From Nitrospiraceae bacterium (GTDB lineage: Bacteria > Nitrospirota > Nitrospiria > Nitrospirales > Nitrospiraceae), in assembly GCA_050246315.1 (NCBI GenBank), contig JBFWWG010000003.1:224001-288000 (forward strand): a stretch of DNA of 64,000 nucleotides. Direction: 5' to 3'. The translations under genes and the position numbers were made by a program. A model generated the notes under the pieces. It saw only the letters and a program-made list of their open reading frames with translations. It was not told the DNA's origin and did no database searches. This document shows, in pieces, positions 18,884 to 30,615 of this stretch (position 1 is the stretch's first letter; every line of letters starts with the position of its first letter).

Positions 18884-19126
18884 ATGGCCAAAAAGACCAC
18901 TCGGTTGTTCTTCAGCGGGAATAGCCAGGCCGTCCGCATTCCGAAAGAGTTTCAGATGGAAGGCGATGAGGTCGAGATCCAGCGCAGGGGCAACACCCTT
19001 GTGCTCCGCCCCATGAAAAAGTCCTGGGCAGCGTTGACCGATAGCTTGAAGAACTTTACGCGAGACTTTATGGAAAGCGGACGGCAGCAGCCCCTCTCAC
19101 AGAAACGGAAGCGGCCCTTTTCATGA
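18884..19126 (+). CDS. vapB: VapB antitoxin (AbrB/MazE fold)
   Basis: LFFSGNSQAVRIPKEF; ATGA overlap with the PIN toxin. Confidence 0.9.
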   Translation: MAKKTTRLFFSGNSQAVRIPKEFQMEGDEVEIQRRGNTLVLRPMKKSWAALTDSLKNFTRDFMESGRQQPLSQKRKRPFS

Positions 19127-19524
19127 AGGTGATGCTGGACACCAACATCTGCATCTATCTCATCAAGAAGCAACCTCCTTCCGTGCTGGAACGTTTCACG
19201 GACCATCCGGTCGGCGACATCGGCATCTCGGTCATCACATTGGCAGAACTCGAATACGGTGCGAGCAAGAGCCGGCATCCGCTGCGAAATCGGCTGGCCC
19301 TTTACCAATTCATTACGCCACTGGAAGTGGCTGACCTCGATCGGAATGCAGCGACCACCTATGGAAGACTCCGTGCTTCTCTAGAGACCAAGGGCACAGT
19401 CGTCGGAGCAATGGACCTCTTGATCGCTGCCCACGCGATCTGCCTGGGAGTCAAGCTGGTGACCAACAATGTACGGGAGTTTCAGCGAATCCCTGGATTG
19501 CGAGTGGACAATTGGGTGTCGTGA
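19123..19524 (+). CDS. vapC: VapC PIN-domain toxin
   Basis: MLDTNICI, ISVITLAEL, GAMDLLIAAHA, LVTNNVREF. Confidence 0.93.
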   Translation: MKVMLDTNICIYLIKKQPPSVLERFTDHPVGDIGISVITLAELEYGASKSRHPLRNRLALYQFITPLEVADLDRNAATTYGRLRASLETKGTVVGAMDLLIAAHAICLGVKLVTNNVREFQRIPGLRVDNWVS

Positions 19525-20514: not shown

Positions 20515-20823
20515 CGAGCAAGGCCGCGTGATATCTGTAGGCGGATGAAGCGGAAGGGGACATCAGGAGAGGAGGCGGATCAACTGGGGAGCGACGCGGG
20601 AGCTGATACTCGGCGAGGAATGGCGCTCTGTGGACTATCGAGGAAACTCGCGATCGGGGCCGTCGGCTTTCGCCAATCGGCCCCGATCGCGCCACCCCAG
20701 GCCCTCTCTTCGGCGTTCCCGCGTCGGCGAGAGGCCGGGAAGCAGGCTCATGGACACCCGCTGCCTCACCCGGCCTGTCCGTGAACAGACCGGCTCCGGG
20801 CCGGCCAGAGCCGTGCGGGCGGA

Positions 20824-20944
20824 CTGGACAAGACGGAATCCCAGGTTGTTGTTCCGGTTGTCGGCATTGTTCCTGTTCCGGTTCGACGCACGGAGGTTCT
20901 CCGGTTTGTTGTTCCAGGACCCGCCGCGGATCACACGCTGGCCG
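20824..20944 (-). ncRNA. DGR template repeat (TR)
   Basis: 121-bp ungapped match to 22498-22618 with 17 mismatches, all at TR adenines (minus strand). Contains 10 AAC codons. Confidence 0.95.
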
Positions 20945-22013
20945 TCTTGTGGCCCGCTCCCCTTGTGAACACGGCCTGGGAGAAGATCGCTCTGCGTAGA
21001 CCCTCCGTGTCGGCATGTTTCGCATGGCCGATCCAGCTCTGAATGGAGGCCACCATCATGGTCCATTCCAGGCGCCCGGTTCGATAGATCTGCGCCATCC
21101 GGCGGAATCGCCGTGCGAACCGATGACCGTTATCGTTCCGGAGCCGACGGTGCTCTGGATAGACGATGTACCCCAGGATATTGAGCCCGTCAACCGTGCG
21201 CGTCACGTGGGCCTTGTTGGGATGGGGTTGGAGCCGGTCGGTGGCAAGCCGCTCACGGACGGCTGCGCGAATGTCGGTCAGTCTGGCTTTATCGTCCCCC
21301 AGCACGACCAAATCATCCACGTAGCGCAGGTAGGGCCGGACGCGCAACCCCTGCTTGATGTAGTGATCCAGGTCGTCCAGGTAGAGATTGGCAAAAAATT
21401 GGCTCGTCAGGTTGCCGATGGGGATGCCCACCCGTCGTTCCCACGGCGTAAAGAGATTATCGCCGGCAAAATAGCATGGCTCGGTCCCCTGTCTTGGAGA
21501 CCCATCGATAATACGATCCAACAGGGCCAGGACGCACCTATCCTTGATACGCCGGCGAAGCTTCGCCTTGAGCAGCTCGTGATCGATGGAGGGGAAGTAC
21601 TGCCGGACGTCCATCTTCAAGACGTACCGATAGGTCTGCGCCCAGGCTTGATAGCGGTCCACCGCCGCATGGACGCCCTTGCCGTGACGGCAGGCATAGG
21701 AGTCGGCAATGAAGGTCCGGTCGAGCGGTGGCTCGATCACGTTCATGACCGCATGGTGCACGACCCGGTCGCGAAACGGTGCGGCGGCAATCACACGCGG
21801 CTTGCGTTCATAAATTGTGAACAGACGGTAGTCATCCGGCCGATAGGTCCCCTCCTGAAGCTCGCGCTGGAGCGACAGTACCTCCCCTTCAAGAGCAAGA
21901 CCAAAATCCGCGACGCCCTGACGACTCCGCTTGCCCCGCCGCGCCTTCCGATAGGCGGCGAGCAAATTCTCAAAACTGACCAGCCGCGGCCACAGTTCCC
22001 CGAGTCGTGTCAT
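20931..22013 (-). CDS. DGR reverse transcriptase
   Basis: APFRDRVVHHA, LKMDVRQYFPSIDH, GIPIGNLTSQFFAN (DGR-type), YLRYVDD. 360 aa with no maturase or endonuclease extension. Confidence 0.95.
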   Translation of the reverse strand: MTRLGELWPRLVSFENLLAAYRKARRGKRSRQGVADFGLALEGEVLSLQRELQEGTYRPDDYRLFTIYERKPRVIAAAPFRDRVVHHAVMNVIEPPLDRTFIADSYACRHGKGVHAAVDRYQAWAQTYRYVLKMDVRQYFPSIDHELLKAKLRRRIKDRCVLALLDRIIDGSPRQGTEPCYFAGDNLFTPWERRVGIPIGNLTSQFFANLYLDDLDHYIKQGLRVRPYLRYVDDLVVLGDDKARLTDIRAAVRERLATDRLQPHPNKAHVTRTVDGLNILGYIVYPEHRRLRNDNGHRFARRFRRMAQIYRTGRLEWTMMVASIQSWIGHAKHADTEGLRRAIFSQAVFTRGAGHKTASV

Positions 22014-22366
22014 ATGTTTTCTTGAGACGCAGCTCGACTACGGACCCAGCCGCCGATCTGCCGCCCGAGGTCATCAAGGAGTCTCGCTCCATGCTCGTAC
22101 TGCCGGATCGCCATAACTCCTAGTTCGTGGGCCAGCCGCCAGAGGTGGCGCACGACCTCCAGACGCAGATTCGCGCGATGCAACGGCACGTCCTTGTTCC
22201 GCGCATAGGCTGCCTCCACCAACAGCTCCAGCACCTCAAGCAATCCGGCTTCCAACCGCTCGCCCAATGTGAACCGCCGGGCACGGGGGAATTTATCGAG
22301 TTGCGGGATCAGCCACAGAAGCAAGTCATGACAGGATTGGACAGCTTGGGGGAGGCTGGTCGTCAT
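22010..22366 (-). CDS. avd: DGR accessory variability determinant (four-helix bundle)
   Basis: 118 aa, DKFPRARRFTLGERL...IGGW; ATGA overlap with the RT. Confidence 0.9.
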   Translation of the reverse strand: MTTSLPQAVQSCHDLLLWLIPQLDKFPRARRFTLGERLEAGLLEVLELLVEAAYARNKDVPLHRANLRLEVVRHLWRLAHELGVMAIRQYEHGARLLDDLGRQIGGWVRSRAASQENI

Positions 22367-22401
22367 GTGCCGTCAACCTGAGCCGTTTAGGATTTCTCTG
22401 A

Positions 22402-22438
22402 CCGGCCCTCGCCCGATGTCGAATCGGGCGAGGGCCGG
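22402..22438. other. Perfect 16-bp stem, 5-nt loop hairpin downstream of the DGR target
   Basis: CCGGCCCTCGCCCGAT-GTCGA-ATCGGGCGAGGGCCGG, about 45 bp after the target stop codon. Confidence 0.8.
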
Positions 22439-22482
22439 CCTCTTTCGGAAGTGTAAAGGGTAAAAGGACAAAGGATAAAGGG

Positions 22483-24402
22483 TTATTCGGTCATGTCCTG
22501 GACAAGACGGAATCCCAGGTTGCCGTCCCGGAAGTCGGCATTGACCCCGTTCCGGTTCGACGCACGGAGGAGCTCCGGCCTGTCGACCCAGGACCCGCCG
22601 CGGAGCACACGCCGGCCGCAATCGCCTTTGCCCCCCTCGAGCCAAGCAGAGCCATCAGTCGGCGCCCCTTGATAATCATCGTGCCAGCAATCCTCCACCC
22701 ATTCCCACACATTCCCGCTCATATCATGCAGCTCAAAACTGTTTTTTGTCTTCTGCCCAACAGGGTCGGTGCGATCGGTGCCGTAGACTGCGTAATCCTT
22801 CAATTCTTGCGGTGACGAGGCTCCAGCCCACTTGTTGTTCTTCTCTCTGCCTCGCGCCGCATACTCCCACTCGGATTCGGTCGGAAGTCGATAGGCGTTC
22901 CCTGTTGCCCTGGACAGCCACTTGGCATAGTCTTTCGCCTCACCCCACGAGACATAGATCACGGGCCGTCTGTCACGACCCCAGCCTGCATCCCCTGGTC
23001 GCTGCCCACCTGCCAATTCCAGATACCGGTCATACTCTTCAAAGGTCACTTCGTATCTGCCCATCTTAAACCCATTGATCCGGACTTGGTGTTTCTCATC
23101 GTCACCCTGTTCATAGGTGCCTTCAGGAATCTCCACCATGGCTGGCTTAGCGACCTGCACAACACCAGAGCGAACCAGGAGACTGGATCCGACATATCGA
23201 ATCTCTTTCCACAGAAAAGCGACTGGCAAGCCAACCAGCGCCAGGATGAGGCCGGCACTTAAAAGCTGTACCGTGTGCTTCGCTCGGCGTTCATTCCAAC
23301 CCTGAATCCAATGCGCCACCTGCCCGACGAGATAATCATGCTTGAATTCGTACCAGTCTGTTCCTTGACGCTCTTCGTGGCGAAGGACTCCATTACCGGC
23401 AAGACTTGTGAGGATAGTCCGTATCCGCTGGTCGTTGGAGACGCGTAAGGTATCCCTTAGGTCTTCGATGGGTCGATAGCGTTTCGTATTATCGGGCGTC
23501 TTCAGTGCGTTAAGAATGCGGACCATTAACGGTTTCTGCGTCCGAGGCATCGAGTTCAATGGCTCGAACACGCTCTTCTCGAGTATGTCTTTGGCTTTCC
23601 CACATGCCTCATAGTCCGCAGGCGTGATTGCGCCTCCTCCTTGCGGCTGTCTTCTCTGAAACTCTCTCCACAGAGTCCAGCAGACAATTTGGAGTTTGAT
23701 CGGCGCAACTCTGCCTGATCCATCCTTCAGGTCTTCGATAAGCCGATCCACAAGGTCCGATTCATAGTCATACCCGACGACTCTCACAGGCATCTCAATC
23801 GCGCGACGCGCCTCTTGCGTTGCTAACGAGGTCAGCCGGACATTCGCATTGTTTTGAAAGATCGACGGGATGACCTCCCTGAACTCGTGCAGGTCGGCGA
23901 AGTAATCCTCACGGAGAGACAGCACGAGGAACACAGGAAGCTGCTCGTCGTATCGGACGAGCGCGACCTGACGAATAAACTCTTCCCTTAACTTTGGACT
24001 CTCACGGAAGACGATGAAAAATTCTTCAAACTGGTCGACAAAGACGACGAGTCGAATTTTCCTATCTTCGACGATTTTCGTGAGAAACCCATGGAGTTCC
24101 TTAGGCTGTCCGTCGACATTGAGTTCCTTCGACACGGCATCTTGGATCGAGGTGACGGGATTGCTTTCCAGTCTGGTATGGATGGTCTTATAGCCGAGCT
24201 TTTCGAGTTCCGGCCTGACCCCTGCGTTGATCAAGGACGTCTTGCCTGAGCCGGAAGGAGAAAATAAGACGAGCAGCCGTGAGGAAAGCACCTCGCCAAC
24301 CATTTTTTGAACTTCCTGCTCCCGTCCAAAAAACAAGTCCGCATCCTCAAGGCGGTAGTAATCCAGATATCGATAGGGAGACCTGACGGGTGTATCGTTC
24401 AC
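22483..24402 (-). CDS. DGR target: nSTAND1-like NTPase + TM helix + FGE-sulfatase (C-type lectin fold) domain
   Basis: SPYRYLDYY..LFFGRE, Walker A SPSGSGKTS, Walker B VFVDQFEEFF, LSLREDY, YEFKHDYL; TM LLSAGLILALVGLPVAFLW; RLPTESEWEYAARG, DMSGNVWEW, RGGSW, LGFRLV. VR at the C-terminus. Confidence 0.9.
   Translation of the reverse strand: MNDTPVRSPYRYLDYYRLEDADLFFGREQEVQKMVGEVLSSRLLVLFSPSGSGKTSLINAGVRPELEKLGYKTIHTRLESNPVTSIQDAVSKELNVDGQPKELHGFLTKIVEDRKIRLVVFVDQFEEFFIVFRESPKLREEFIRQVALVRYDEQLPVFLVLSLREDYFADLHEFREVIPSIFQNNANVRLTSLATQEARRAIEMPVRVVGYDYESDLVDRLIEDLKDGSGRVAPIKLQIVCWTLWREFQRRQPQGGGAITPADYEACGKAKDILEKSVFEPLNSMPRTQKPLMVRILNALKTPDNTKRYRPIEDLRDTLRVSNDQRIRTILTSLAGNGVLRHEERQGTDWYEFKHDYLVGQVAHWIQGWNERRAKHTVQLLSAGLILALVGLPVAFLWKEIRYVGSSLLVRSGVVQVAKPAMVEIPEGTYEQGDDEKHQVRINGFKMGRYEVTFEEYDRYLELAGGQRPGDAGWGRDRRPVIYVSWGEAKDYAKWLSRATGNAYRLPTESEWEYAARGREKNNKWAGASSPQELKDYAVYGTDRTDPVGQKTKNSFELHDMSGNVWEWVEDCWHDDYQGAPTDGSAWLEGGKGDCGRRVLRGGSWVDRPELLRASNRNGVNADFRDGNLGFRLVQDMTE
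22498..22618 (-). repeat. DGR variable repeat (VR)
   Basis: Encodes GRRVLRGGSWVDRPELLRASNRNGVNADFRDGNLGFRLVQ versus TR GQRVIRGGSWNNKPENLRASNRNRNNADNRNNNLGFRLVQ. The last 25 nt are identical to TR. Confidence 0.95.
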
Positions 24403-25286
24403 GGGGTCCTACGAATTCCGAGTTGGGGAACGTCGAGGGTAAACTTCACGGCAACTTTTCTGGCAAATTCGGTTAGGTCTTCGTCGAAGATCTGTATATT
24501 TCGTCGCAACCAGTATGATCGAATGAAATGCGACGGGCTCTTCATGAGGGCATAGGCCGTGATGGCTCTTGATCTCGCGGTTTGCGTGGAGAGCACCCCC
24601 TCCCAGATCACGCGAAAGTTCCAATCTTCGAGACTGTATCCCAGGAACAAGAGACTGCATTGTGGGATTACTTGCTTGCGGAAATATTCAGGCATTCCCT
24701 TATCGATGTCGGTCAGATTTGCCAAGTATTGAATGTAGTCCGATTGGGTAATGACAAGACTTTCGGGATCTTCGATCGTGCCATGCATCTTATGCATAAC
24801 GAGTTCTCGGTCGCGAAACTGGAATGGCCCCCTAAAATGACCGGTCCTTGGATCCAGCGGCTTATGGACATGCTTGGTCAGAATCCGACCTTGTGACGTA
24901 AGTGCAGTCTCCAAAAGCGTGTCGTAATTTGATGTCAGAATGATCTTGATGTGGTTCAGTTGGGAGAGCACAGTGTGGATGGGCCGTGGCTGACAAGGTA
25001 CCTGAAGCTGCTGCTGCAAAGCGCTTTCCAGCGGCTGTCTGTTGCCTCCATGGAAATAGACATGGTGCTCAGCGACTTTGGCAAGATCATAGGCCCCGTT
25101 TGCATATTGGCACTGTGCAGCTAAGACCTTTGCCAGCTCACCTCCGGTAGGAAGACCAGGATTCTGCGCTCCGTCTGTCCCAGGGTAAGCCGTGCAGGCG
25201 CCCGCACCCAGGAATACCACGCATTGTTGAGATTCAAGGGCGGTGAAGATGATGCTGAGATCCTGGTCAGCCAGCCCATTCATCAC
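24399..25286 (-). CDS. SIR2-family (SIR2_2-like) protein
   Basis: VFLGAGA, ILTSNYD, KMHGT, LLFLGYSLEDWN. Its stop overlaps the GTG start of the DGR target (GTGA). Confidence 0.88.
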   Translation of the reverse strand: MMNGLADQDLSIIFTALESQQCVVFLGAGACTAYPGTDGAQNPGLPTGGELAKVLAAQCQYANGAYDLAKVAEHHVYFHGGNRQPLESALQQQLQVPCQPRPIHTVLSQLNHIKIILTSNYDTLLETALTSQGRILTKHVHKPLDPRTGHFRGPFQFRDRELVMHKMHGTIEDPESLVITQSDYIQYLANLTDIDKGMPEYFRKQVIPQCSLLFLGYSLEDWNFRVIWEGVLSTQTARSRAITAYALMKSPSHFIRSYWLRRNIQIFDEDLTEFARKVAVKFTLDVPQLGIRRTP

Positions 25287-25827
25287 GGGACTCGCAACGG
25301 CTCTCGTTCGGTGAATCTGCTTTGGTTTTCATTGGGGGCATTGGAGATAGCTGTAGATGAGGCTGGACGAGTCGCTGGAGCAACTGAACGGCTGTCCCCA
25401 CACCAGCACCTCACAGATATGAGGTACGATCATTTCATACCACTGTGGCCAGCGCGTAGGCAGGTCAACGAATTATCTGCATCTGCCGATTGGGAGTCAA
25501 GCCAGCCGACTCATGGTTTCGACGAAATACATGTATTTCCGAAAGGTGACACGGTCGATCGGACGGGTCGTGCGGTCCAATGCCATTCTTAGTAGAATTT
25601 GCGAAGCGGTTTCCACCGTGAGCCCTGTCCAATTCTCCTCCTCACGAGGGTTCTCGGACGTGGGAGTAAACAGGGTAGTAAGAATGGGATATTCTGATTT
25701 TCTGACCGTGACCATTCGCTGTTCGTCTCCGGCAAACTAGAATGTCCTCAAGTTAGCCGGCTGGAACGGATGCGCGGTGAGGTTGGAGCGACGGCAGGAC
25801 CTGCCGTGATAGAGACGGGCGGTCACT

Positions 25828-25914: not shown

Positions 25915-26028
25915 ACGGGCCTTGGCCTCAGCAGGTGATTCAGCAAGTGCCCGTGACTCCACCGGCGGCTTCACGATAGTTGCATTTTTGCAATTGTTGT
26001 CGGATAGTGAATGTTAGGAGAACGGAGT

Positions 26029-26235
26029 ATGAAATTCACGGTCACCATTACGCGAGACGAAGACGGGATGTTCATTTCCGAATGCCCGGCTATTCCAGGC
26101 TGCGTCAGTCAAGGCAAGACGGAAGAGGAAGCGCAGTCGAACATTCAGGACGCCATCAAACAATGTTTGGAAGTCCGTGCTGAGATGGGCATGCCGCTCA
26201 CCATCACCACACGCCAAGTCGAAGTTCCGGTGTAA
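26029..26235 (+). CDS. hicB: HicB-family antitoxin (short form)
   Basis: MKFTVTITRDEDGMFISECPAIPGCVSQGKTEEEA. Confidence 0.88.
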   Translation: MKFTVTITRDEDGMFISECPAIPGCVSQGKTEEEAQSNIQDAIKQCLEVRAEMGMPLTITTRQVEVPV

Positions 26236-26465
26236 TGCCGCCTCCTCCTGTTCTTTCTCCCGCAGCAGTCATCAAGACCTTCGAGCGACTCGGTTGGCGA
26301 GTGGTTCGACAGAAAGGCAGTCATATCATCATGACAAAATCCGGCCACATTGCCACCCTGTCGATTCCTAATCATTCAGAAGTTGCGCGAGGCACGCTTC
26401 GCACCCTGATCTCCAGAGCAGGGTTGACGGTGGAACAGTTTATCGAAGTCCTACAGAGGGACTGA
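26235..26465 (+). CDS. hicA: HicA-family toxin
   Basis: GWRVVRQKGSHIIM...LSIPNH.EVARGTLRTLI; TAATG overlap with hicB. Confidence 0.9.
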   Translation: MPPPPVLSPAAVIKTFERLGWRVVRQKGSHIIMTKSGHIATLSIPNHSEVARGTLRTLISRAGLTVEQFIEVLQRD

Positions 26466-26551
26466 GCGGTAAGCCCGCCGGCTGAATGGGTCATAGGAAG
26501 GGTGGCCAAATCGGAGGCAGACATATGGCTAACCGAATTCGGAAGCTCCAA

Positions 26552-26800
26552 ATGAAGGAAGTTCCGCTTTCTGAGGTGAAGGATGATCTGTCGCACCTGC
26601 TTCGCGAGGCAGAGAAGCAGGAGATCGTGATTACCCGGTATGGCAAACCTGCCGGGGTCCTGATCGGATTCAAGTCCGAAGACGACTGGTTCGATTATCC
26701 ACTTGAGAACGACCCACGGTTCCTTCGGCGTATCGAGGCCGCGCGGGAAAGTTTGCGCACAGGCCGCGGCGTCAAGCTCGAAGATGTAAAGGGACGGTGA
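26552..26800 (+). CDS. Phd/YefM-family antitoxin with no intact partner toxin
   Basis: MKEVPLSEVKDDLSHLLREAEKQEIVITRYGKPAGVLIG. Confidence 0.85.
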   Translation: MKEVPLSEVKDDLSHLLREAEKQEIVITRYGKPAGVLIGFKSEDDWFDYPLENDPRFLRRIEAARESLRTGRGVKLEDVKGR

Positions 26801-27084
26801 GCGGGTGGGGGAATCTCGATTGCGCCCATCGAACGAGCACTGCCCGACACTGACAATTCAAATTGATCCCGCCGGCGCGTTCTGGGAACAAAGAATAGGC
26901 ACACTTCCTCGTCCAAGCTTGCTGATGTTTTCTCGGCTGGAACGGATGCGCGGGGAGGGCGGCGCCATGGCAGAGGGTGCCGCTCGGCCAGCCTCAGCAA
27001 TCCCGAGCGCGACGACATGCGACGCCGCGTCGCAGTTTTATAGGAGCACTCGGCTAGACAGAAAAACACGCAAGAGCCGTCCAG

Positions 27085-27171
27085 GTTCGCTGCATCATGG
27101 CGCGACCGAACCCGCGCGCCGTTCGCCAGCCGACTGCCCTTAGTCTTCCAACGTCGAAATATCTCCCGCGT
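27085..27171. repeat. Direct repeat copy B, overlapping the acs stop codon
   Basis: Pairs with 25828-25914. Confidence 0.85.
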
Positions 27172-29223: not shown

Positions 29224-30615
29224 ATGGTGCAAGCCTCCTGCCGTCCGCTTTCGCTGACCGCTTGGATTGTTCGCTCCGGTCTCTTTCTCCTCCCATGGGC
29301 CGCCCTCGTCGCTGTGCCCACCCCCGCACAGGCGCAGGCGGGAAAACCCGAAGGTCTCTACTATAAGTCTTGGGCGGTCGTGGTTGGGATCGAAGACTAT
29401 CTCGTCGCGCCAAAGGTCCCCGGCGCCGCCGCCGACGCCAAGGCCATGGCTGAATCCCTGCGCGGACTCGGCTTTGAGGAAGTGATCGAACTTTACGACA
29501 AGAAGGTCACGTCCAAACAATTCCATTTCATTTTGAACGACGTGTTGCCACGAAAGGTCGGACGGGGCGACCGTTTGGTGTTGTACTTCGCGGGACACGC
29601 CGGCCAGACCACCGATGCGGGCGGGGCTCCCTTGGGCTACCTGGTGCCGTGGGATGCGCAACTGGGGAGCGTGGCGAAGTCCGTAACGCTGGATCAATTG
29701 AAGGAATTCAGCCGGCGGGTGATGGCCAAACATATTTTCCTGATTCTTGATACGCCGGTCACCGGTTGGGACGTGACCGCACCCCAGCAACTCTCGTTAG
29801 AAGGACGCATGGCGCCGGAACAGGATACGGACAAGCGGGCCGTCCAGGTCCTGACTGCGGCGAAGAGTGGAGAAGAGATCGCGCGGTCGGAAACCACCAG
29901 CCTGTTTATGCAGGTCCTGAAGGAGGGCCTGTCGGGACAGGCCGATCGCAACAAGAACGGTTGGTTGATGGCCACGGAATTGGCCTCGTACGTGCAGGAA
30001 CAGGTCGAGGCCCGCTCCAAGGGAACCCAACACCCGCAATTTGCCAGGCTGGACGGGGACGGGGACACGATCCTGATCGAAGGACGGAAGGTCGATTTCA
30101 CTGTCGGAGTCGGTCCCGAGACCGAACAGGAGCGTATGGCAGCAGCCAAGGCCCATTATGATGAGGCGTTCCGCCTCTTGCAGGCCCGCAAGGACCCAGA
30201 AGAAGCCCTGACCCGGTTGAACAAGGCCATTGCCTTGGCCCCCTCCTTCGGCGACGCCTATGTCTTGAAGAGTTACATGCAGTTGGAAGTCCTCCCGAAC
30301 CTGGACGAAGCGTTACAAACCGCGAATTTGGCCGTTGCCCATGCCCCGGAAAATCCGGATTCTCACTACACGCTCGGGCTGATTCAGGAAAAGAATGGAC
30401 GGTATCAGGAAGCGGAACGGGCCTACCTCAAGGCGCTGGAAATCAATCCCGACTATGCCGACGTGCTCCTCTCCCTGGGCCTATTGTACGAGGACCACCT
30501 GAAGCAGGACCAAAAGGCGGCGGATGCCTATCGCCGCTACAGTGAATTGGGCGGAACCGACAGCCGAGCCACCAAGTTCCTCGAAGGCCACGCCCAGCCT
30601 TCGAGCTCGCAGTAA
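29224..30615 (+). CDS. Exported caspase-like (C14) domain + TPR protein, probably catalytically inactive
   Basis: Signal peptide; SWAVVVGIEDY, LYFAGHA; LILDTP replaces the D-x-C motif; C-terminal TPRs. Confidence 0.8.
   Translation: MVQASCRPLSLTAWIVRSGLFLLPWAALVAVPTPAQAQAGKPEGLYYKSWAVVVGIEDYLVAPKVPGAAADAKAMAESLRGLGFEEVIELYDKKVTSKQFHFILNDVLPRKVGRGDRLVLYFAGHAGQTTDAGGAPLGYLVPWDAQLGSVAKSVTLDQLKEFSRRVMAKHIFLILDTPVTGWDVTAPQQLSLEGRMAPEQDTDKRAVQVLTAAKSGEEIARSETTSLFMQVLKEGLSGQADRNKNGWLMATELASYVQEQVEARSKGTQHPQFARLDGDGDTILIEGRKVDFTVGVGPETEQERMAAAKAHYDEAFRLLQARKDPEEALTRLNKAIALAPSFGDAYVLKSYMQLEVLPNLDEALQTANLAVAHAPENPDSHYTLGLIQEKNGRYQEAERAYLKALEINPDYADVLLSLGLLYEDHLKQDQKAADAYRRYSELGGTDSRATKFLEGHAQPSSSQ

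Follow-up and report, generated by a model that had tools for sequence, protein, structure and literature searches.

A diversity-generating retroelement acts on a predicted membrane-spanning STAND NTPase-lectin protein paired with a SIR2 candidate effector in a Nitrospiraceae bacterium

NLR-like antigen sensors (resembling nucleotide-binding leucine-rich-repeat receptors) that are varied by diversity-generating retroelements (DGRs) have been predicted twice by comparative genomics, and no experimental test of them is contained in the available parts of the two papers (PMC8195603, PMC10907252), to which all statements on these sources refer. Kaur et al. 2021 (eLife, PMC8195603) defined the nSTAND1 family of STAND NTPases (signal transduction ATPases with numerous domains) and described STAND NTPase-FGS systems, their link to DGRs and their occurrence in several copies per genome. 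TIR, DRHyd, calcineurin, caspase, trypsin, kinase and FHA domains are given as their N-terminal adaptors or effectors (PMC8195603). Doré et al. 2024 (PNAS, PMC10907252) described DGR clade 5D as 'putative antigen sensors' of multicellular bacteria, in which nSTAND1 or NACHT is joined to a C-type lectin (CLec) domain, and a Nitrospira genome appears in the DGR tables of this paper. A SIR2 domain coupled to a STAND NTPase is known from Avs5 (AVAST type 5), a SIR2-nSTAND3-repeat sensor with experimentally determined anti-phage activity (PMC11897194, PMC12931631; available parts), which is activated by filamentation (PMC11897194). The locus described here lies on the minus strand of a 64,000-nt stretch of DNA, in the following called the window, from the Nitrospiraceae bacterium GCA_050246315.1 (contig JBFWWG010000003.1, positions 224,001 to 288,000). 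It comprises a DGR, its target gene, which encodes an nSTAND1 NTPase with a predicted transmembrane (TM) helix and a C-terminal FGE (formylglycine-generating enzyme)/CLec domain, and a stand-alone SIR2 gene directly upstream of the target gene.

Locus layout and recent activity of the retroelement

The genes are arranged on the minus strand in the order SIR2, nSTAND1 NTPase-TM-FGE/CLec gene, avd, reverse transcriptase (RT) and template repeat (TR). The SIR2_2 gene (24399..25286, 295 aa) and the DGR target gene (22483..24402, 639 aa, GTG start) were both recognised as open reading frames (ORFs) and by Pfam, and the stop of the former overlaps the start of the latter by 4 nt. These ORFs, their coordinates and the overlap had been given in an earlier note made from the letters of the window alone, and all of them were borne out. 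Since the closest homologue begins at the matching methionine, the SIR2 start is probably the ATG one codon in, at 25283. Within the 639-aa protein, the nSTAND1 NTPase domain comprises residues 9-367 (23302..24378; Pfam, 1.4e-52). It is followed by a predicted single TM helix at residues 380-398 (23209..23265; hydropathy and model helix) and by an FGE-sulfatase/C-type-lectin-fold domain at residues 420-634 (22501..23145; Pfam, 8.1e-47), which is predicted to be periplasmic. The variable repeat (VR) of 121 nt, determined by TR/VR alignment, covers codons 597-635 of 639 (22498..22618). Downstream of the target gene follow avd (22010..22366, 118 aa), encoding the DGR accessory protein (Pfam bAvd, 9.4e-17; NCBIfam NF033474, 97.1 bits at a cut-off of 80), the DGR RT (20931..22013, 360 aa; Pfam RVT_1, 8.1e-19; PADLOC RT profile, 2.4e-53) and the TR (20824..20944, 121 nt, from repeat alignment), which overlaps the last 14 nt of the RT ORF. 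The RT translation contains YVDD and IGNLTSQ, of which we take the latter to be a motif typical of DGR RTs.

A comparison of TR and VR showed 17 mismatches, and all 17 lie at TR adenines, which is far beyond chance since only 32 of the 121 TR bases are adenines. The TR contains ten in-frame AAC codons, and 18 codons of the target are variable, which corresponds to approximately 10^17.7 protein variants, with one codon alone able to turn into a stop. Just 3' of the VR and the stop codon lies a CCCTTT-rich tract, which is kept after all five VRs of the genome and is followed by a guanine-cytosine (GC) hairpin in four of them. In the window this GC-rich hairpin comprises a 16-bp stem and a 5-nt loop (22402..22438; fold z-score -5.55), and none of 200 shuffled sequences folded as well. 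DGRs recognise their targets by IMH (initiation of mutagenic homing) or hairpin elements 3' of the VR, and by analogy a role of tract and hairpin in target recognition is suggested. A spacer-like sequence 3' of the TR (20694..20823) is conserved across the window TR (contig C3), a second TR (C5) and a TR relic (C14) of the same genome, and it presumably forms part of the DGR RNA.

The activity of the DGR can be followed in public samples. The locus was found in 14 DNA runs from six studies with a word share of 0.96-0.98, the sample types being landfill, wastewater, bioreactor, aquatic and sludge; 11 of the 14 runs are a possible source of the assembly itself. For three DNA runs, each from a different study (X3, X12 and X13; two of them not flagged as a possible assembly source), and for one RNA run (X15), contigs were compared with positions 20800-25300 of the window. 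All three DNA runs contained a long contig with no difference over 22618/22683-25300 (at least 2618 nt), which ends at the upstream edge of the VR. Among the contigs listed, X3 and X12 also showed separate VR contigs of 133-157 nt with 15-18 differences and a lower depth than the flanks, and X13 showed none over the VR core. Among the variant places listed inside the VR, 20 of 20 face a TR adenine, for which the probability by chance is 6e-15; 13 of these 20 are already mutated in the window, and the other seven are adenines that the window has kept. Since the flanks are identical and the VR differs solely at template-adenine sites, it follows that the DGR was recently active. Altogether, avd, RT and TR represent an intact and recently active DGR. 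In the RNA library, contigs extend over the junction of SIR2 and NTPase (24119-24828) and over parts of the NTPase, avd and RT, and the VR variant of this library is identical to that of the DNA run X12; these contigs can be taken as a hint of expression.

The genome contains two full RTs, that of the window and one on C5, which are 79% identical, besides RT and Avd scraps and a TR relic. In addition to the VR of the window, the window TR matches a remote VR on contig C14, where 18 of 18 mismatches lie at adenines. This second target (C14:41773-43185, minus strand, identical to L009:8774-10186) encodes a TIR_2-TM-FGE protein of 470 aa with a predicted TM helix at residues 196-214. With a single TM helix between a variable ectodomain and a TIR domain in the cytosol, its topology would resemble that of a Toll-like receptor, and its VR is the sole one of the five that lacks the 3' hairpin. 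The second DGR lies on C5 together with its adjacent target (C5:64279-68838, L010), and the C5 TR matches three VRs. The first belongs to a remote TIR-nSTAND1-TM-FGE gene on C4 (C4:22009-24618, L011; 14 of 14 mismatches at adenines), the second to a remote DUF4062-nSTAND1-FGE gene on C18 (C18:27817-30534, L012; 15 of 19) and the third to the adjacent TIR-nSTAND1-TM-FGE gene (18 of 26). With eight non-adenine mismatches among 26, the adjacent VR may have drifted out of service. The decayed DGR parts of the genome are a relic similar to the TR, in which the conserved spacer-like sequence on the 3' side is retained (C14:40478-40598), an RT scrap of 32 aa immediately downstream of the C4 target (C4:21481-21576) and an Avd scrap of 31 aa beside another FGE gene (C14:18558-18650).

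Receptor, SIR2 partner and chimeric origin

The earlier note had proposed an NTPase, a SIR2 enzyme and an FGE-type lectin domain, and Pfam matched all three as nSTAND1, SIR2_2 and FGE-sulfatase; the motifs it had read in the translations are also present (SPSGSGKTS and VFVDQFEEFF in the NTPase; GAGA, TSNYD, KMHGT and FLGYS in SIR2). Walker A of the NTPase is GSGKTS (51-56) and Walker B is DQFEE (123-127), and G51, G53, K54, S56, D123, Q124, E126 and E127 are invariant across 30 NTPase homologues. The AlphaFold2 model of the 639-aa protein showed a pLDDT (predicted local distance difference test) above 90 for residues 1-390, and it is poor over the FGE/VR part, with values below 50 for residues 570-628. 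Foldseek matched the NTPase model with ORC/Cdc6 AAA+ proteins, with the wheat and Arabidopsis resistosomes and with Apaf-1, CED-4, NLRC4 and NLRP, with E values from 1e-10 to 1e-6. According to the model, the domain is an NTPase with a STAND-type fold and with Walker A and B motifs.

Residues 380-398 are hydrophobic, with a Kyte-Doolittle mean over 19 residues (KD19) of 2.29, and lie within a single helix (356-409) of the AlphaFold2 model. A comparable segment precedes the FGE domain in four of the five DGR targets of the genome (KD19 of 2.0-2.3), the C18 target being the one without it. A TM-like segment after the NTPase was also determined in 49 of 70 SIR2-linked nSTAND1 proteins that were long enough to judge, whatever their sensor. 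In these 49 proteins, lysine and arginine were counted over 15 aa on either side of the segment. The mean is 5.35 for the N side and 2.18 for the C side, with an excess on the N side in 44 proteins, a deficit in two and a tie in three, a charge bias that corresponds to the positive-inside rule. Thus, the TM-like helix that had been proposed between NTPase and lectin domain was found by hydropathy, charge bias and model helix. Since the 639-aa protein comprises no N-terminal signal peptide and its N-terminal domain is ATP-dependent, the simplest reading of the sequence is an N-in/C-out topology with a periplasmic lectin domain. With this topology, the HEAT, TPR and WD40 repeat sensors of other SIR2-linked nSTAND1 proteins would likewise sit outside the cytoplasm, a point on which no discussion was found in the available parts of Kaur et al. 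2021 and Doré et al. 2024.

Among solved structures, PvdO (5hha, 1.2e-33) and the DGR variable protein TvpA (2y3c, 4.3e-19) come closest to the lectin-fold domain; PvdO is a periplasmic protein. The stretch with the cysteine pair of the FGE enzymes 6muj/2q17, which we take to be the catalytic cysteines, aligns to DRPEL and a gap in the lectin domain. Since this stretch is replaced by non-cysteine residues and a gap, the domain does not qualify as a formylglycine-generating enzyme, and the sequence fits a binding domain rather than an enzyme.

The SIR2 protein consists of one SIR2 domain throughout (SIR2_2 in Pfam, 3.5e-25) and contains no adaptor domain. The ThsA-type SIR2 profile of PADLOC matches with 2.1e-23 by its SIR2 part alone (profile positions 14-227 of 478). 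Thoeris (ThsA and ThsB) was ruled out, since the protein comprises the SIR2 domain alone and its neighbour is an NTPase and not ThsB. Its closest solved relatives are the anti-phage NADases ThsA-like 7uxt, KomC (8zsf), ThsA (8wc0/6lhx) and DSR2 (8k98), with E values of 8e-12 to 2e-4 for ThsA, KomC and DSR2. The catalytic residues expected for such an enzyme are present, as the asparagine and histidine positions of the solved anti-phage SIR2 NADases are kept. The putative catalytic residues N120 (TSNYD) and H168 (KMHG) are invariant in 24 SIR2 homologues, and in the alignment to KomC, H168 falls on H146, which is mutated in PDB entry 9xvc. The SIR2 protein is not named by any NCBIfam model. The complex prediction of SIR2 with residues 1-378 of the NTPase, made with our own alignments, gave a score of 0.00, which counts neither for nor against an interaction.

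The family of this SIR2 protein comprises 546 members at E<=1e-10, mostly of approximately 295 aa. Some homologues are fused to CHAT, TIR or DUF4062, which, judged from their domain composition, is the behaviour of an effector module. Such double effectors were observed as SIR2_2+CHAT of approximately 500 aa (L100:8001-9503; P0010, P0013, P0015, P0021 and others), as SIR2_2+TIR_2 of 575 aa (P0205) and as SIR2_2+DUF4062 of 518 aa (P0208). The four other DGR targets of the genome carry a fused TIR or DUF4062 at the N-terminus, in three of the four in front of nSTAND1, and the separate SIR2 gene of the window occupies the same position. A fusion of SIR2 with nSTAND1 was not found within the SIR2 clade at E<=1e-15, a blank that is weak evidence; the search for fused forms returned SIR2+TIR, SIR2+DUF4062 and two others only. 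Distant relatives do fuse a SIR2-like domain to nSTAND1, in P0187 and P0190 together with FGE, and in P0188 and P0192-P0196 with the SIR2-like domain at the C-terminus. By their domain order these fused relatives support an association of the two domains; the SIR2-like domains of P0187, P0190, P0188 and P0192-P0196 are possibly inactive and may have another role.

The pairing of the two genes was followed with a profile of 24 SIR2 homologues, which gave 80 reference-genome loci, and with the single protein, which gave 19 metagenome loci. With local profiles, 76 of the 80 genome loci and 18 of the 19 metagenome loci showed an nSTAND1 ORF immediately downstream of SIR2 and in the same orientation. 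In three loci missed by the local nSTAND1 profile (L070, L042 and L049) the domain was recovered by Pfam and six-frame searches, so that the final count is 79 of 80 and 18 of 19. Both misses (L023 and L115) end inside SIR2 at a contig end, and hence the pair is present in 97 of 97 loci with downstream DNA. Pfam confirmed nSTAND1 in all 33 partner ORFs submitted, out of 76, and 4-nt SIR2/nSTAND1 overlaps are frequent among the loci. The co-occurrence of SIR2 and NTPase in homologous loci, on which the earlier note had made its reading depend, therefore holds almost without exception, and the comparison indicates that this nSTAND1 clade has the SIR2_2 enzyme as its fixed partner in many phyla. 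The wider neighbourhood of SIR2, NTPase, avd and RT, for which conservation had also been considered, is not conserved as a unit: the SIR2-linked NTPase carries an FGE domain in one of 80 genome loci, and neither these loci nor the 19 metagenome loci yielded an RT. Around the pair no third conserved gene was found; the synteny is lineage-local only and extends to no more than 14 of 87 loci on the upstream side and 13 of 69 on the downstream side. The C-terminal part of the 33 scanned partners comprises HEAT repeats in 13, TPR in eight, WD40 in four and Peptidase_S8 with FGE in one, and nothing further in seven, five of which run off the contig. The single FGE partner among the 80 genome loci is an Anaerolineales nSTAND1-TM-Peptidase_S8-FGE protein of 1165 aa (L032:3280-6777), and no RT is present within its 10-kb locus. 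On one metagenome contig, a NACHT-FGE protein of 967 aa (L103:360-3263) is encoded approximately 4.7 kb upstream of a SIR2-CHAT and nSTAND1 pair, so that STAND systems with a lectin tip and STAND systems linked to SIR2 also occur together elsewhere.

The receptor gene appears to be of chimeric origin. SIR2 and NTPase show a GC content of 0.518 and 0.523, the TM-FGE part of 0.575, avd of 0.605 and RT of 0.608, compared to 0.597 for the whole genome. The NTPase (residues 1-378) is 50-58% identical to nSTAND1-HEAT proteins of other phyla (KSB1, Acidobacteriota and Aminicenantes) and 24-26% identical to the paralogues of its own genome. The TM-linker, in turn, is 52% identical to these paralogues, and the FGE domain is 61-64% identical to those on C5, C14 and C4 and 33% to that on C18. 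A SIR2 match was found in one of 200 other genomes of the family, with 25% identity, and in none of three genomes of the same genus. These three congeners (G024, G052 and G070) all contain related DGR RTs; in G024 and G070 the RT adjoins FGE-only or TIR genes, no SIR2 or nSTAND1 lies next to it, and a syntenic ancestor of the fusion was not found. The most economical explanation of these findings is that a SIR2+nSTAND1 pair was imported and became fused to the TM-lectin module of a resident DGR target, the junction lying in or close to the TM segment common to both.

The cassette is flanked by toxin-antitoxin-type pairs, namely MazE with PIN (18884-19524), HicB with HicA (26011-26465) and Phd/YefM with a 112-aa ORF without family (26486-27143). 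At 29224-30615 on the plus strand follows a gene for a caspase (Peptidase_C14)-TPR protein of 463 aa, which resembles the NCBIfam model 'caspase, EACC1-associated type' below its cut-off and may be another conflict-system effector near the cassette. The toxin-antitoxin genes and the caspase-TPR gene lie within 5 kb of the cassette, a setting that fits a defence island without proving one. No tRNA was found nearby. A TTGACT-17-GATAAT site lies 190 nt upstream of SIR2, and with two such sites in the region compared to 2.9 expected, this is not above chance.

Proposed mechanism and rival explanations

Based on these findings, we regard it as fairly probable that the locus encodes a DGR-diversified, membrane-spanning NLR-like receptor of a defence or conflict system, in which ligand-induced oligomerisation activates the partnered SIR2 and leads to the depletion of NAD+. 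The DGR would rewrite 18 codons at the C-terminal lectin-fold tip of a receptor whose nSTAND1 NTPase is predicted to lie in the cytoplasm and to be connected by one TM helix with an FGE/CLec domain in the periplasm. The SIR2_2 gene immediately upstream would be translationally coupled to the receptor gene. Binding of a periplasmic ligand to the variable ectodomain, for example part of a phage, a toxin or a component of a foreign cell envelope, would cluster the receptor, whereupon the NTPase would oligomerise at the inner face of the membrane. The oligomer would switch on SIR2, and the hydrolysis of NAD+ by SIR2 would result in cell arrest or death (abortive defence). From the reading given in the earlier note, the anatomy stood; the signalling chain and the immune role, and with them topology, ligand sensing, SIR2 activation and NADase activity, are inferred.

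Several observations weigh against this proposal. The topology is inferred from hydropathy, charge bias and one predicted helix, and a single TM helix would have to relay binding to a STAND oligomer. The fused SIR2-like/nSTAND1 relatives have replaced the catalytic histidine, in two cases also the asparagine, so that the SIR2-like domain may not be an NADase in parts of the family. The NTPase matches none of the families in PADLOC-DB v2, and in the literature searched, a SIR2+nSTAND1 pair was not found as a tested defence system. Since FGE sensors are rare on SIR2-linked NTPases (one of 80 genome loci and none of 18 metagenome loci), the SIR2-nSTAND1-FGE combination would be young and its fitness value unproven. 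The VR variation was determined from assembled contigs and not from raw reads, with contigs of paralogous VRs aligned to the same stretch, and the RNA-library contigs may derive from DNA.

The same architecture could serve a purpose other than defence, sensing kin or non-kin cells, matrix or environmental ligands in aggregates, with SIR2 causing growth arrest or regulating metabolism. This would agree with a sensor that is predicted to face the periplasm and not the cytoplasm, where phage proteins accumulate, with the biofilm habitats in which the organism occurs (sludge, bioreactor, wastewater and landfill), and with the connection of such DGRs to multicellular or aggregating bacteria made by Doré et al. 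(PMC10907252). Since the closest characterised SIR2_2 proteins and STAND NTPases are anti-phage, however, the toxin-antitoxin pairs and the caspase-TPR gene create a defence-island-like setting, and CHAT and TIR, both effectors of the death type, occur in fusions with SIR2 homologues, we consider this explanation unlikely. The chance that SIR2 does not deplete NAD+ at all appears similarly small. It could then act as a deacylase or ADP-ribosyltransferase on the NTPase or another target, or as a nucleotide-binding sensor subunit. A non-catalytic role is conceivable from the fused SIR2-like domains that lack the histidine, or both asparagine and histidine, and the absence of an NCBIfam model naming the protein would also be compatible with a regulator. 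In the window protein and 23 close homologues, however, N120 and H168 are invariant, the similarity is highest to NADase-type defence SIR2s and not to protein deacetylases of known function, and the paralogues hold TIR, another NAD+-processing domain, at the equivalent position.

A further explanation concerns the hydrophobic segment, which might be no membrane span, so that the protein would lie entirely in the cytoplasm, with a lectin domain that senses invader molecules inside the cell. FGS was described in this sense by Kaur et al. 2021 as an intracellular, invader-sensing lectin-like domain (PMC8195603); the C18 paralogue contains no such segment, and 21 of the 70 SIR2-linked partners lie below the chosen hydropathy threshold. 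Compared to this, the KD19 of 2.0-2.3 in four of five paralogues, the excess of lysine and arginine on the N side in 44 of 49 proteins and the one continuous model helix at the segment argue for a membrane span, as does PvdO, the closest solved relative of the lectin domain and a periplasmic protein, and a cytoplasmic protein is thus rather improbable. That the locus arose recently as an accidental chimera and has either lost its function or not gained one so far, with the DGR mutating the VR of a useless protein, can hardly be expected. The differences in GC content (0.52 for SIR2/NTPase, 0.575 for TM-FGE and 0.60 for the genome), the low identity of the NTPase to the paralogues (24-26%), the near absence of SIR2 from the family (one of 200 other genomes, 25% identity) and the decayed DGR parts of the genome would be in line with such an accident. 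Both ORFs are nevertheless intact with all motifs and the 4-nt coupling is kept; the VR variants listed for other samples change at TR-adenine places alone, flank contigs without any difference occur in runs from several studies, and RNA-library contigs lie over the genes.

Beyond this locus, it is possible, though doubtful, that nSTAND1 proteins are widespread membrane-spanning NLR-like receptors, with the NTPase and an NAD+-consuming effector inside (SIR2 in trans or TIR in cis) and a HEAT, WD40, TPR or lectin sensor outside the cytoplasm, and that one DGR template feeds two of them. If so, the two receptors of one template would be the SIR2/nSTAND1-TM-CLec protein and the Toll-like-receptor-shaped TIR-TM-CLec protein, and a clonal population would gain a somatically diversified, envelope-facing receptor repertoire connected with death effectors. 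Variants that react to self would be eliminated through their own effector, which would be a bacterial counterpart of clonal deletion.

Comparison with known systems

Compared to the systems described by Kaur et al. 2021 (PMC8195603), the locus shares the combination of nSTAND1 with a C-terminal FGE/FGS domain that is diversified by a neighbouring RT and a four-helix accessory protein, and the genome likewise contains several paralogous NTPase-FGS genes with different effectors, including the NAD+-processing TIR. The effector or effector-associated domain (EAD) in their systems is fused to the N-terminus of the NTPase, whereas here a separate, coupled SIR2 gene is present and no EAD, as nSTAND1 begins at residue 9. 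Furthermore, FGS is called intracellular by these authors, whereas here a TM helix is predicted to precede the FGE domain (PMC8195603). In the available part of the paper, SIR2 is not listed for the STAND-FGS system and the term is used for another system. In its supplementary file 1, which contains 8 mentions of SIR2 and 1355 of nSTAND1, no operon of SIR2 followed by nSTAND1 was found (file 13 lay outside the search); the nearest case is a SIR2 gene located several genes away in another transcription unit (PMC8195603). The main text of Kaur et al. 2020 contains no occurrence of SIR2.

The genomes of Doré et al. 2024 (PMC10907252) also comprise several DGRs with remote targets, decayed copies and VR variation between natural samples, and some of their targets have predicted periplasmic lectin domains. 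The N-terminal effectors in their systems are peptidases or TIR, compared to SIR2 here. SIR2 occurs nowhere in the main text and nine supplementary files of this paper (figures S10/S11 as extracted text only), and neither a chimeric origin nor a conserved SIR2+nSTAND1 pair is described in its available parts (PMC10907252). Full-text literature searches that combined DGR with SIR2/STAND, DGR with sirtuin and nSTAND with SIR2 returned no description of the SIR2/DGR-STAND pairing.

Among experimental precedents for a SIR2_2 domain that works as the effector of a STAND sensor, the best is Avs5, which joins a member of the same Pfam family (PF13289) to a STAND NTPase and to a C-terminal sensor that is variable. 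Judged from the available parts of its description, Avs5 is one cytosolic polypeptide with nSTAND3 and TPR/Sel1/PPR repeats, whereas the locus of the window comprises two genes, nSTAND1, a predicted TM helix and a DGR-diversified lectin domain. An identity with Avs5 was therefore ruled out based on the two genes, nSTAND1, the C-terminal TM and FGE parts and the absence of the NTPase from all PADLOC families. With ThsA, KomC and DSR2 (6lhx, 8wc0, 8zsf, 8k98) the SIR2 protein shares the asparagine and histidine positions; these proteins carry SLOG or large C-terminal sensor domains, whereas the SIR2 of the window is a bare domain with an NTPase partner. SIR2 proteins of the ThsA, KomC and DSR2 type are switched on by small-molecule signals or by direct binding of phage proteins. 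As in TvpA of Treponema (2y3c) and Mtd of the Bordetella phage, the VR lies at the C-terminal end of a CLec fold and is varied adenine-specifically from an AAC-rich template. TvpA and Mtd, however, occur on their own as binding proteins of the surface or the tail fibre and carry neither an NTPase nor an effector.

The novelty of the locus had been overrated, since DGR-STAND-FGE/CLec sensors with NAD+-processing effectors are known from the available parts of PMC8195603 and PMC10907252. What the locus adds is a compact test case with two sensor/effector genes, avd, RT and TR, an NAD+ read-out and natural variants in public samples. The SIR2+nSTAND1 pair represents a conserved two-gene module across phyla, with an NTPase that is unmatched in PADLOC-DB v2, and the predicted TM helix between NTPase and sensor in most of its members points to a surveillance by this bacterial STAND family that faces the envelope and not the cytosol. 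In the chimeric origin, a resident hypermutation module would have been re-wired to a newly acquired death effector. Compared to the described systems, the separate SIR2 effector, the split-gene form and the chimeric origin of this copy are new.

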